A DNA stretch of 64,000 nucleotides, from positions 208,393 through 272,392 of the forward strand of contig CAJNOH010000087.1 of NCBI GenBank assembly GCA_905250005.1, read 5' to 3'. The notes under the pieces are model-generated. The model ran no database searches, was not told the DNA's origin, and saw only the letters and a list, made by a program, of their open reading frames with translations. The stretch comes from Rotaria sordida (taxonomy: Eukaryota). The stretch's first letter is position 1. Every line of letters begins with the position of its first letter. The position numbers were made by a program, and so were the translations under genes. This document shows positions 1,970 to 13,779 of this stretch, one piece after another.

Positions 1970-4516
1970 TTACATGATATCACAAATAGCTGATGTTGGA
2001 TTCAATCGATCGTCAGTTTTATATGGTATGTAGATTTTTATTTCTTCGAGAAAAGTAAGATAATCCTTCAAACTAAGTGTTATCGTCAGTTGAGATCTAG
2101 CAATGTCCTCCTTTAGTGAAGAAAACATAGCTTGTTGGCTTGCTTGGCACATATCATAAACTTTATGCAATAACCGACCGTTCATTCCTTCGAAAGCTGG
2201 TAGAAAAATACTAAGTTCTTTATCAAGAAGAAAAGATTTGACATGATCTTTAGTCCACATATCGATACAATGTGGATATTCCCTACAATAAAAAAAACCA
2301 ATTGATTATAGTTTCATGTGATCTAATGTTGAAGTTTTCCTATAATAAGTAGAAGTGTCAGTTAATGCATAGATAGGCAACAATGGATAAAAACATACTG
2401 GTAAAACATTTTACAAAGACATTTTAAAAAATTATTCTGGTAATGGGGACTCAGCCGATTGCATTGTACGTTTAATAAGTGCCAGTACAAAAATTTCTGA
2501 GATTTATTGAATAGAAATCTCGGTGTCAATAAATGTGAATCTGAAGAATCGTTTTGTTATATTTCAGTTGACACAAATGTTACAATGGTAATGCTTTTTT
2601 TTTCATTTTCTAAGCATTGCTATGTCCTTAAAGTGTTTGTCGATGAAAAGTATAAGATAAAGTAAATTTACTAATTAAATTTCCATAATCACTAAACATC
2701 ACTATCTATACAAGTTATCAAGAAGAGTACCTCATGTCTAGAATAACAACTTTCACCCTCAAAAAAAAAAAGACTTACACAACTGGACGCGGTTCTTTAT
2801 TATTTTCAACGCTTGAATTTGTTTTTGGTGTACTATCCATTAACGAACTTGAATTGTGATGGACTTGATTTTGTTCGGCAAGTATTAAGTTTGAATTATT
2901 CATTCGAAATAGTCCTATCTGTTTCTTAAGTTCTTGATAAGCTTTATCGAAACCAAGTTTCGGAAAATCAATATAGATCAATGCTGATGTTAACACTCCA
3001 AGCCATCCATCAGCTTTGTAGCTAGTTGTCATAACTAATGGAATAATATGACATCGACGTTTAACTGCATAGCTAGCTTCCATTTCACAGAAAGGACTCT
3101 GTTTGTAAGCATCAGACATACAAACAAGTACAAATTCTGCATTTTCAATAGCTTTAGCCATAGCATCAAATGTAGCACCATGCATCAATCGAGAATCAAT
3201 CCAAACACATAATTGATCTTTCTCGAGAGAACTTAAAATACGATGACACAGTGTTTTATCACTATGTGAGTAACTTATCATGATATCATATTGTTTTTTA
3301 TCAATCATTAATGAAGAAATTGAAGAAGGTTGTTGTTGTTGTTGTTGAACTGTTTTGATTATTGTTTCTGGTTCTTTTTCTAATTTCCATATTAATGCAG
3401 TAGCTATTAGTTGTAGATCTTGTTGTGATGATGAAGTCAATGTTCGAATATGATTCATGAAAGTATCATTGTTTTTGAGAATAGTCGCAAATTCTTTGTT
3501 AAAGACTAATGCAAGAAGAATTTCAAGTGCAGGAAGTTTTGCTTTGAGTGGATTGAATTGATCTTCGAGAGCACATCGAAGAAAAAGAGAATGACCTTTT
3601 TGTTTGATTAATTCTTCTCGAATTTGATCATGTTGTGTTAATACTAAAGAGAAAAAAAATAAATGATTAGTTTCTGAATGAGTGTATTTATAAAAAAATA
3701 TTTTCTTAACTATTATTATTCCTTGGAAGAAGAAGACAACTAAAACTAACCTTTAAGACTTCGAAGACTATTGTGTAGGCGACCTTCTGTACGAATACCT
3801 CCATCAATAACATTTTTAATAAAAGTAATAAAAACCGTAGCGATTCTACTCGAATTTTGAAGTTGTTTTATATCTGCTTCTGCCATAATAACAGCCAGAA
3901 TTCGATAGGCATGTAAATGAATTTCATCATCATTATTTGATTTTCGTATAAGTACATTGATAAGATCGACTAATTGAAGACTTTTAAGATAAATAACAAG
4001 TTCACTATCCAGAGTAAAATAGAAGAGAATTTGAAGAAGTTGTTGAACAAGAGGTATACCAGCTGGATCTATTGTTACTTGATTTGATTCATTGACAGAC
4101 AGTAGAATACGTTTGATAGTATCAGAGATATGTCGACATGCATCACGTGTGCCGTCACTAGTTATTACATCGCCAAGATCCATTCGAAATAATAAGTTAG
4201 TTAGATGTAGTAAGATATTTATCATAGCTGAATTCCATTTGATATATGGTGGCCGACCAGTATAATTCTCACTAAGCCAACTATTGAACCATTTAAGATG
4301 AGTACGTCGAATTCGTTCAATTATCTCTTGACGTCGATTACCTTCATACCAGGCAATTTGATTTGGATAATGTTCAAGTACGGTAAGTTCTTCATATGAA
4401 CGAGAATTGGACTGTTCTTTAGCAATTTTTTCGAACATTTGTGTATATAAAGGAGAACAAACTTGATCAACAGATCTAGCCAACATATCTGTAAACTCTG
4501 TGTAGACATGTGACAT
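1970..4516 (-). CDS. SARM-like protein, copy A (about 647 aa): an N-terminal alpha-helical domain followed by a TIR domain and a C-terminal SAM domain. Exons 3751..4516, 2779..3643 and 1970..2282.
   Basis: ORFs 3746..4516, 2775..3458 and 1970..2260 sit on one strand. Exon 1 ends AAAG|GTTAGT (phase 1). The acceptor is ..ttctctttag at 3644-3649. The exon-2 reading frame is open upstream of its first Met, reading LTQHDQIREEL... The TIR motif is YDIMISYSHSDKTLCHRI...FVLVCMSDAYKQSPFCEMEASYA. A GTAAGT donor overlaps the TAA stop at 2773-2778. A poly-Y plus AG acceptor sits at 2283-2284, in phase with a SAM-like exon (YPHCIDMWTKDHVKSFLLDKEL...GMNGRLL). No homology search was possible. Confidence 0.7.
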
Positions 4517-5989
4517 TGTTAATAACGTTTATTAATTAAAAAAAAAAGTGTTTTAACGTGATGAAAAAAAATATGGAGTAATGTATTTTAAAAGGACATA
4601 TATGAAGTTAGATTTCTTTTCTTTTTCTTGACGACAAAGTCTATATTAGCAACATACAGAAAAAAAAAAGAAAATATTTCAACCATAATGGAACTTTTAA
4701 TGTGTCTTTCATGTTGATTCTTTTATAGAAGTTGTGAAATGACGGCAAGAAAAAAACAACTTCCCTATCAACCTTCGTACAGCGATGAATATAGAACGTA
4801 TAGAAAATAAGTAACTTTTTCTCTACAAAACAGAACAACACATTTACTATAAACAGGAGTAGATAGTTGATTCGAGTTCGAATATAACTGAAGATAAAAA
4901 AAAAACAAAGCATAAGTTAATCATCACGCTTAGCCAAAAATAACATTTAACAGCTGAAGTTTAATAATCAAAGCTATGATTCTCGTCCTCAAAATACTGG
5001 ATATAAAGTTCGACTTTACTGTTCAGATAGACGAGCATTGGTGGTAGCTTTATGGATGGCGATCGCTGTTCTTACACCATTAGTCTCGATTGTAGATGTT
5101 TCAATTATGTTCTTATGGTAAAATATATCTAATACACTTCATTGAAGTTCATCAAATATCCAAAATACTATTTAGAATCATGACAAGATTCGATGAATGT
5201 CATCAATATGCTTTTTCTCAATTCTCAGATTGTCCATTCGAGATATTTCGATACAAAGACTTCAATCTCACTTTTCTGGTACCTCACACAATGTGATACC
5301 CTCGTGTCTCCTTTGTGTAGTATCATCATTAATTTTCCTTTTTTTTTGCAGCTGTTTTATTGATTTTCAAGTCACATTCAGTTTATATTATAATTCATCC
5401 CAAGTTTATTTTTCAGAAGTGATATTTTGACTCTTAAATCTTCATTTATATTCGAACTCGTATATAGACAATTCATGATAACCATAGTTGATTACAATGT
5501 TGCTTTGTTTTGCTTCTAACAATAGGACAATTCGAAATATATATATCAGATTTTATCTAATGACGTGAATGAATATATCAATCAAATAAGTCTATTTCTA
5601 AAATAAAAATGAAGCATTACTTTCTATCTGTAATCTGATTGATAATTTATGTTTTTTACTCATAAAGTGAGCTATTGTAATCATTCAATAAAACATTGAC
5701 TTAAGAGGTTGGGATTACTATTTAGAATAGTACATTAATTTCTCTTTCATTAAAGCAACATTACTGTCTTAAGTTAAGAGAAGCAAAATTATTATATATT
5801 ATCAATGTGAGCTAATTTAAATTTCACCGTTCGAATTTTCCAGTGGTGATAGCATATTAAATTCATCTATTCGATCATATTCATGTATATTAGAGTAAAT
5901 TCTCTCTATAACAATGAAAAAAATATCTAACGACAAAACCTTTCTTGGTGTCAAATCGCTTTTCTACCGAGACTATGTTCATTTAATGA

Positions 5990-13300: not shown

Positions 13301-13779
13301 GATAAAATTGAGCAAAGATTCTCTTAGATTGCTTTGCTTTGATATTTTTCTTGGTTGTTTAGTCAATTACAAAGTTTTACTTATTTGTCATTGTCACTTT
13401 GTGATCGAAAAAAATTTAATCGATATGTAAACAGTATTGATAGAATTATTTTTTTCTCAAGCTCGGTTTACTCGTCTAGTTACGAAATGATTATTCTAAT
13501 ATAATCGATAAATAAATTTGCCTAGTAAAATATTATTCGAAATATTTTACAAAAATACATACGTTGTATTAATCCAAGTCGAGTTAGTAATATTTGAGTT
13601 GCATCATTAACAATTGTAGTATTATTTGAAGTATTCCAATTTAATGAAATTTCTTGTTCATCTGAATTACTTTCAATATTCGATGATAATGAACATTGAG
13701 TACTTTTACTTGATAAATCAAGTATATTTTCATTAGAAATAACATTCAAATTTGAATGTCCTACTAAAGAATAATACAT
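10381..13779 (-). CDS. ADP-ribosyltransferase-like domain fused to a tetratricopeptide-repeat (TPR) protein, about 836 aa. Exons 13563..13779, 12086..12750 and 10381..12012.
   Basis: ORF 10381..12012 contains about 12 TPR units of the kinesin-light-chain type (A..Y..AL.I...). An open frame with no Met runs over 12086-12750, between a ttttaaaattag acceptor and a TCAAAA|GTAAAT donor. Splicing it to the next exon gives AIYWFSRQCFLSK|MLNKALR. Further on come IVYLGQ, FLFGSTD and IDNNNDVLL..G..GRLIKV. These fit the ART aromatic-LN-ALR, YRG, STS and ExE motif order with catalytic residues substituted. The 5' exon ends CAAC|GTATGT, and its phase matches the next exon. The start codon is uncertain. 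Confidence 0.7.

Follow-up and report, generated by a model that had tools for sequence, protein, structure and literature searches.

Tandem ARM-TIR-SAM genes of the bdelloid rotifer Rotaria sordida very probably lie in a conserved syntenic block and not in a defence island

Gene content of the locus

The subject of this report is a 64,000 nt stretch of the genome of Rotaria sordida (contig CAJNOH010000087.1, positions 208,393 to 272,392; called the window throughout), in which a first-pass annotation had seen a candidate innate-immune island built of TIR, SAM, TPR and ADP-ribosyltransferase (ART)-like genes. The sequence is eukaryotic and rich in AT (24-40% GC), its introns are short and of the GT-AG type, and we rebuilt four minus-strand genes from it (Table 1). 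G1 and G2 are tandem paralogues with armadillo (ARM), TIR and predicted SAM domains, G3 combines a degenerate ART-like domain with a TPR array, and G4 is a single-exon relative of G1 and G2 at the far end of the window. The locus itself is ordinary, and its reading as a defence island is not supported.

Table 1. Rebuilt genes and their features in the window (all coordinates are window positions)
Feature	Position	Strand	Description
G1	exons 4516-3751, 3643-2779, 2282-1970 (1970-4516)	minus	ARM-TIR-SAM, 647 aa; GT-AG introns, open frame when spliced; exon homology to a single Adineta vaga gene
TIR domain of G1	2928-3284	minus	Pfam TIR_2 1.6e-20; motif SPFCEME with putative catalytic Glu
SAM-fold exon of G1	1970-2282	minus	
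G2	exons 9473-8708, 8600-7730, 7507-7198 (7198-9473)	minus	Tandem paralogue of G1, 648 aa, spliced model; counterpart P0003 in locus L001
TIR domain of G2	7879-8235	minus	Pfam TIR_2 2.1e-17
Gene-conversion tract G1/G2	3090-3643, partner 8049-8600	minus	Last ARM repeats and first half of TIR domain
G3	10381-16095 (16095 approximate)	minus	Multi-exon, ~1,140 aa; DUF4590, low-complexity linker, uncharacterised N-terminal domain, pseudo-ART, TPR array
Last two coding exons of G3	12750-12086 and 12012-10381	minus	
N-terminal domain of G3	12086-12750 (residues ~80-294)	minus	Precedes the ART-like domain
Degenerate ART-like core of G3	11518-12012	minus	VYLGQ / FLFGST / NNNDVLL
TPR array of G3	10483-11370	minus	Pfam TPR_12 3.6e-53, TPR_1 6e-30, TPR_10 1.8e-27
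G4	59714-62326, single exon; open reading frame reaches 62416	minus	870 aa per database model P0140, which begins at the second Met
Domains of G4	TIR 60482-60853; SAM-like unit ~60008-60250; SAM ~59726-60001	minus	ARM-like N-terminal region, TIR, SAM-like unit, SAM

The R. sordida database proteins match our models closely (98% identity between G1 and P0001, 100% for G4). The public gene models for the locus of G1, G2 and G3 are nevertheless inconsistent, several of them being truncated or fused. P0001, the database model of G1, ends before the SAM exon; together with the related Rotaria models P0007 and P0010 it terminates at an in-frame TAA that overlaps the splice donor, which leaves all three without that exon. 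P0062 joins a G3 orthologue to the first exon of the TIR gene, and many models of G3 orthologues (among P0102-P0136) are divided at an intron into two proteins. The annotation of the locus is corrected in these respects and by a predicted SAM domain that is invisible to Pfam.

Domain architecture of G1, G2 and G4

The TIR domains that had been called in G1, G2 and G4 were borne out by Pfam TIR_2 (PF13676), with E values of 1.6e-20, 2.1e-17 and 2.2e-16 and bit scores of 74.2, 64.2 and 60.9 against a cutoff of 28. The N-terminal region had been described as helical, which stands, and it can now be identified as armadillo repeats: among the matches to a profile built from 33 members of the family are Vac8 at 1e-10, a designed ARM protein at 7e-11, catenins and ODAD2.

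The C-terminal domain is more elusive. The last exon of G1 and G2 gave no Pfam SAM match above threshold, either as the exon alone or across all 27 members of its alignment, and among PDB sequences its profile found nothing beyond weak, SAM-enriched matches (liprin-beta at 0.0035). The SAM assignment comes from structure prediction, which together with a fold search returned a five-helix SAM fold.

In G4, the second SAM unit falls below the Pfam cutoffs (SAM_PNT 20.2 bits against 24, SAM_3 16.6 against 22.6, SAM_1 14.2 against 23) and aligns with the G1-type SAM domain at an hhalign probability of 98.9%. The last 188 residues are predicted to form two helical bundles (pLDDT 85.1) for which SAM domains are the top fold matches, and on this model the first SAM-like unit is probably, not certainly, a SAM domain. 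The TIR-SAM-SAM gene originally placed at 59.7 kb thus stands, with the fuller order ARM-like-TIR-SAM-SAM and a first SAM-like unit that is probable. Homology between the G4 and G1 families extends over 545 aligned columns, the N-terminal region included (hhalign 99.7%, E 1.4e-25); the G4 family profile gave one marginal match in the PDB, and its N-terminal link to the ARM family comes from hhalign alone. Taken together, these domain and homology results place three members of one ARM-TIR-SAM superfamily in the window, with G4 reading as a distant paralogue that has a second SAM-like unit. Elsewhere in the family, P0033 of Didymodactylos carnosus carries two tandem G1-type SAM domains (E 1.5e-34 and 3.7e-37). 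As G4 also has two, SAM number is variable within the family.

Distribution of the family

The top 100 matches to G1 come mostly from Rotaria, Adineta and Didymodactylos. Full-length homologues farther afield (E 1e-18 to 1e-26) occur in Mytilus, Styela, the coral Desmophyllum and the urchin Diadema, and the family reaches monogonont rotifers through a protein of Brachionus plicatilis, so that Mollusca, Cnidaria, Echinodermata, Tunicata and monogonont Rotifera are all represented. Pfam finds both Arm and TIR_2 in the proteins from mussel, coral and urchin, and the C-terminal SAM-like profile is matched by the coral and urchin proteins, weakly by the mussel protein, and by several metagenomic proteins. 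An exhaustive search with G1 of 1.84 billion representatives, each standing for a cluster at 50% identity, gave 2715 matches at E<=1e-3; at the stricter limits of E<=1e-10 and E<=1e-30 the number falls to 1203 and 107.

The architecture had been thought undescribed. However, ARM-TIR is a recognised class among invertebrate TIR proteins, of unknown function and with 11 members in Aplysia (PMC9334734), and the evolutionarily conserved TIR-DC (ecTIR-DC) proteins, ARM-TIR included, are described as lacking in vertebrates (PMC6321704); ARM-TIR and ecTIR-DC proteins are known from molluscs, cnidarians, echinoderms and placozoans, and proteins resembling ARM-TIR-SAM occur in coral, urchin, mussel and monogononts. 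By their sequences, G1, G2 and G4 are assigned to this known invertebrate ARM-TIR class. The modestly new point is the cryptic C-terminal SAM domain, which would make these proteins domain-permuted relatives of the SARM1 design. SARM1/TIR-1 itself is matched by the family profile at E 0.012 and by the SAM-domain profile at E 1-2.4, and is absent from the matches when a single sequence is used; because the TIR similarity is marginal, the genes of the window are not SARM1 orthologues. Our literature search for bdelloid expansions of TIR, ART or TPR genes was mostly unproductive.

The TIR domain and its conserved glutamate

Catalytic TIR domains are recognised by a glutamate at the start of helix alpha-C, as in the plant motif SxWCxxEL and E642 of SARM1. 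Searched as a single sequence, the TIR domain of G1 finds as its closest solved sequences the Cat1 TIR NADase (1.6e-4), RPS4 and RPP1, with the glutamate aligned. The family profile again ranks Cat1 highest (2.7e-7), followed by RPS4 and RPP1, and the TIR domains of TLRs and MyD88 rank lower, as weak matches at E 0.005-0.04. Of 122 TIR domains in the family, 121 keep the glutamate that aligns with the catalytic residue of Cat1 and RPS4, and 121 keep a cysteine three residues before it. Read off the sequence, the putative catalytic glutamate is also present in G2 (NPLCEME) and G4 (SKSCRRE).

The suggestion that the TIR genes hold modules of the kind found in NAD+ enzymes is therefore upheld: they share the ARM, TIR and SAM set of SARM1-type hydrolases and conserve the glutamate. 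Individually, they are reasonable candidates for a role in innate immunity or cell death as far as their sequences go.

The TIR domain of G2 (within 7726-8415) has a serine in place of a proline (HIISL for HIIPL) that is present in 120 of the 122 family TIR domains. The reading frame is otherwise intact, and the substitution may indicate that the function of this copy has been relaxed or altered.

G3 and its degenerate ART domain

The first-pass annotation closed its cluster at 13779, inside G3. The gene in fact runs on to about 16095 with DUF4590 exons, which were located by tblastn of the Rotaria sp. Silwood1 model P0102 and by tblastx against the A. vaga locus L002, where window position 16095 matches the annotated start of a 1122-aa gene. 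These parts are joined in three gene models that are independent of one another (1143, 1122 and 608 aa), the two longer ones carrying both DUF4590 and TPR; the partial spliced model from the window covers 837 aa. The TPR array had been called correctly (TPR_12, 3.6e-53).

The ART-like label holds for homology and fails for catalysis. G3 itself has no match to Pfam ART families even at E<=10, and its R. magnacalcarata orthologue P0062 matches ADPrib_exo_Tox (PF03496) at 23.6 bits against a cutoff of 23.4. Relatives P0137 and P0138, which align over 90-95% of the query (E 7e-35 and 1e-29), carry Pfam ART (PF01129) with the canonical motifs VYRGQ, FLSTS and E-x-E. Because G3 has no direct Pfam ART match, its ART homology is transitive, by way of these relatives. 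Membership of the family with an Arg, Ser-Thr-Ser and Glu-x-Glu (R-S-E) signature is thus seen in the homology and not in the motifs. In an alignment of the 21-member orthogroup, the A. vaga gene included, the catalytic arginine is absent from all 21 sequences, the catalytic glutamate is replaced by aspartate or asparagine in 20 of 21, and the first serine of the STS motif is also replaced throughout. With the catalytic residues gone across the orthogroup, the earlier description of this gene as NAD+-consuming has to be withdrawn.

The degenerate domain has nonetheless been kept, with 61% identity between R. sordida and A. vaga, a level that indicates purifying selection. Because the motifs are lost and the domain is conserved, G3 is best described as a conserved pseudo-enzyme and not an NAD+ consumer, and most likely it is a TPR scaffold in which a dead ART domain is retained as a binding module.

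The N-terminal domain of G3 is also conserved; it has no Pfam match and is common to the rotifer ART-TPR proteins P0137 and P0138. A reading of G3 as an ART-associated Crinkler-like (AACRNL) element was considered and dropped; the AACRNL paper is without TPR and mentions rotifers in passing.

Synteny of the locus

On the A. vaga chromosome CP075494.1 the gene order is TGF-beta, MAPEG, alpha/beta-hydrolase, the 1122-aa gene running from DUF4590 to TPR, a 637-aa TIR gene, an Ariadne E3 ligase and two SDR genes, and window positions 1955-28400 are collinear with this order (tblastx against L002 only). Another R. sordida assembly and Rotaria sp. Silwood2 share the order G3-TIR-Ariadne, and in R. 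magnacalcarata the fused database model P0062 places G3 and the TIR gene side by side. The two genes have been neighbours on the same strand since Rotaria and Adineta split. The TIR gene is single in Adineta, and G1 and G2 in the window represent one tandem duplication.

G4 lies apart. Between it and G3 are housekeeping genes, namely a hydrolase, a TGF-beta gene, a 3-hydroxyacyl-CoA dehydrogenase, an SDR gene, the major vault protein gene, an NmrA-like gene and a GT25 glycosyltransferase. Its inclusion in the cluster does not survive comparison with other species, as its neighbourhood differs in Adineta steineri, where the orthologue sits among unrelated genes (zf-C4, UCH, L-PSP, BNR), and in Rotaria sp. 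Silwood1, where GT25 and the NmrA-like gene are both absent within 10 kb. At three of three other A. vaga paralogue loci and at the R. magnacalcarata locus of P0005, the paralogue lies among ordinary genes and has no TIR or ART-like neighbour; the sole TPR signal near these paralogues is faint and belongs to a 315-aa protein next to P0043. In A. vaga, one paralogue (L008 8227-9436) has an upstream neighbour with a faint Death-domain match and another (L009 17012-18128) has a SIR2 gene about 5.6 kb downstream; both neighbours are probably coincidental.

The co-location that had suggested an island gives no sign of exceeding chance: G1 and G2 stem from one duplication, the adjacency of G3 is inherited synteny, and G4 lies 45 kb away past at least seven unrelated genes. 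According to a preprint on bdelloids, TIR-domain proteins number 120 in A. vaga and 133 in A. ricciae, and few of them respond to a fungal pathogen, most of the responders going down (10.1101/2021.09.04.458992). At a TIR density roughly estimated at about 0.5 per Mb, a few percent of windows of 64 kb would hold an unrelated second TIR gene, and therefore several chance windows with paired TIR genes are expected per genome.

The island proposal had been staked beforehand on the families lacking conserved one-to-one orthologues, and such orthologues exist for G3 and for the TIR gene, single in Adineta. In the loci compared here, which stop short of a formal genome-wide test, neither an excess of co-location nor variable content between lineages, the marks of a defence island, was found. 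It is highly probable that the locus is a conserved syntenic block and not an island.

Evolutionary tempo, duplication and gene conversion

G1 and G2 are 78.6% identical in protein sequence and can be aligned over the gene bodies only (1966-4496 against 7194-9453). Their dN/dS is 0.41 in ARM exon 1, 0.34 in the C-terminal part of the TIR domain, 0.19 in SAM and 0.38 overall. Between R. sordida and A. vaga, identity is 51-53% for the ARM N-terminal region, 57% for TIR, 61-71% for SAM and 60-66% for G3, compared with 59-73% for the neighbouring hydrolase and 64-80% for Ariadne. With dN/dS of 0.19-0.41 and gene identities (51-71%) that overlap the hydrolase and Ariadne ranges, the genes do not deserve the label fast-evolving, and on these sequence measures the tempo of G1 and G2 is not that of an arms-race locus.

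The two copies have been partly homogenised. Over codons ~257-440, dS is 0.009, against 0.42-0.89 in the flanking exons, and nucleotide identity in this conversion tract is 96-99%, against 77-81% elsewhere, with 300-nt copies that are 99% identical. A neighbour-joining tree separates a G1 and a G2 clade; because each holds members from both Silwood1 and Silwood2, the duplication is older than those Rotaria species.

At the syntenic locus of Silwood2 (L011 10001-12759) a single ARM-TIR-SAM gene is present, whose exon 1 is 84% identical to G2 and 68% to G1, and whose SAM exon is 88% identical to G1 and 69% to G2. This is the pattern expected if unequal recombination had deleted the interval between the G1 and G2 copies.

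Repeats in the window

The transposon-rich setting described at first was found only in part. When the first 20 kb was compared by BLAST with the whole window, a search that bears on the MITEs reported there, the only repeats were those of the G1/G2 duplication; foldback and telomere-like sequences do occur elsewhere. The open reading frame at 63.3-64 kb that had been called a LINE fragment has no Pfam match. Three inverted repeats, at 22471-23980 (641-nt arms, 94%), 55117-56020 (194-nt, 80%) and 18344-18633 (70-nt, 86%), are foldback- or MITE-like and have no second copy in the window. An interstitial palindrome of about 0.9 kb at 37098-37984, at a distance of 21 kb from the TIR genes, consists of telomere-like, G-rich arrays (TGTGGG and 21-nt GGGAGATGTGAGAGAAGTGTA-type units) and then the reverse complement of these arrays. 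A further palindrome at 38955-41074, with 998-nt arms that are 98% complementary and a 124-nt loop, lies within the gene for major vault protein, which has several exons and spans ~38.3-43.5 kb; the palindrome is probably an intronic foldback element, an assembly artefact being possible.

Interpretation

Our data are best explained by an ordinary, stable block that contains a duplicated ARM-TIR-SAM gene, a conserved G3 and an incidental G4, and in which the ARM-TIR-SAM proteins would work as NAD+ hydrolases; to this combined reading we give a probability of roughly 0.6. One old cytosolic ARM-TIR-SAM gene would have been duplicated in tandem within Rotaria to give G1 and G2, which gene conversion then partly homogenised, and G4 would be a distant superfamily member that is nearby only by chance in this species. 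The SAM domain would drive homo-oligomerisation, whilst the armadillo domain would keep the TIR domain inactive or sense a ligand or partner. Upon activation, the clustered TIR domains would hydrolyse NAD+ through the conserved glutamate, and the outcome would be NAD+ depletion or the release of ADPR-type signals within a pathway of cell death, stress or immunity. The case for NADase activity is the retention of the catalytic glutamate in nearly all relatives; that the proteins are active, oligomerisation-gated enzymes of the SARM1 kind is a proposal by analogy that we hold tentatively, at a little under even odds.

Several considerations weigh against this reading. The conserved glutamate is necessary and not sufficient for NADase activity, and the TIR domains of animal TLRs keep the equivalent residue although they are not known to cleave NAD+. 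The proposed oligomerisation and ARM autoinhibition are carried over by analogy from SARM1, where the domain order differs. The joining of the SAM exon to G1, across a 496-nt intron, is predicted by our spliced model, and the database model P0001 ends earlier. For the idea of a stable block, the tandem duplication, the gene conversion and the chimeric single copy in Silwood2 show that the locus has its own dynamics, and a functional link between G3 and the adjacent TIR gene is conceivable.

Those same dynamics are part of the case for G1-G4 as a rapidly evolving cluster of innate-immune genes in transposon-rich surroundings, alongside the presence of four genes with immune-type modules within 64 kb and of foldback elements and telomere-like repeats elsewhere in the window. 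That explanation has nevertheless become very improbable. The locus is collinear between genera and has housekeeping flanks, the position of G4 is not conserved even within Rotaria and at least seven unrelated genes separate it from G3, the other paralogue loci are solitary, selection on the duplicates is purifying, the ART domain is dead and the first 20 kb is without repeats other than the duplication. Given 120-133 TIR proteins per Adineta genome, few of them fungus-responsive, some chance pairs in 64 kb are moreover to be expected. The main rival concerns the enzyme: the ARM-TIR-SAM proteins might instead be non-catalytic adaptors that assemble Toll/IL-1-type complexes by TIR-TIR and SAM-SAM contacts. 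In the literature, hypothetical roles as adaptors or regulators are given to the ARM-TIR and ecTIR-DC proteins (PMC6321704, PMC9334734). The weak profile matches to TLR and MyD88 TIR domains would suit such a role, as would the glutamate at the equivalent place in TLRs that are not known to be enzymes. We consider it rather unlikely, as the best matches are the NADase TIR domains of Cat1, RPS4 and RPP1, the near-absolute conservation of the glutamate and cysteine across 122 divergent paralogues exceeds what a pure scaffold would need, and the set of modules equals that of the enzyme SARM1.

The neighbouring G3 invites one further explanation, a head-to-tail module of two genes in which the TPR/pseudo-ART protein senses a trigger or an NAD+/ADPR ligand and regulates the NADase next door. 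In R. sordida, Rotaria sp. Silwood2, R. magnacalcarata and A. vaga the two genes lie side by side and point the same way, with an intergenic gap of about 320 bp in the last, and the strong conservation of the dead ART domain would fit a ligand- or partner-binding role. A bacterial TIR/TPR operon that is reported to have anti-phage activity (bioRxiv 10.1101/2023.05.26.542521) offers a parallel. However, the positions of the unrelated flanking genes (hydrolase, TGF-beta, Ariadne) are just as well conserved, so that general microsynteny explains the adjacency, and other ARM-TIR-SAM paralogues have no ART-TPR neighbour. We regard the module as improbable; a regulatory link between G3 and its neighbour is possible, and the data do not indicate one. 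The bolder form of the idea is a eukaryotic two-component NAD+-signalling pair in which G3 would keep an NAD+/ADP-ribose pocket without catalysis and act as sensor or regulator; by analogy with the bacterial TIR and TPR anti-phage operons, the two genes would have stayed linked from before Rotaria and Adineta diverged. This bolder form is very unlikely.

Comparison with known systems

So far SARM1 is the only animal TIR protein that is well established as an NADase. The family described here is large, is spread through invertebrates and has the modules of SARM1 in another order; more than 100 clusters match strongly and the glutamate is almost always kept. Were the proteins active, NAD+-cleaving TIR signalling in animals would be far broader than SARM1, and the ARM-TIR-SAM order would be a natural experiment on how SAM oligomerisation and ARM autoinhibition are wired.

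Against SARM1/TIR-1, the likeness lies in the three modules and the difference in their order, ARM-SAM-SAM-TIR there and ARM-TIR-SAM here, with a single SAM domain in G1 and G2; G4, with ARM-like-TIR-SAM-SAM, differs from SARM1 in order as well. Within the invertebrate ARM-TIR and ecTIR-DC proteins, the bdelloid branch is expanded and divergent, and its C-terminal SAM domain has diverged too far for Pfam. G3 has the layout of the bdelloid R-S-E ADP-ribosyltransferase-TPR proteins (PF01129/PF03496), namely an N-terminal domain, ART and TPR. Unlike them, it is without the arginine, the first serine and the glutamate, has an additional DUF4590 and is present as one conserved orthologue per locus, not as a variable copy. 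With bacterial defence islands and the NLR/TNL clusters of plants, the locus shares TIR and TPR genes that lie near one another and local tandem duplication with conversion; it differs from them in showing no enrichment of defence neighbours, and in its housekeeping flanks, synteny between genera and purifying selection.

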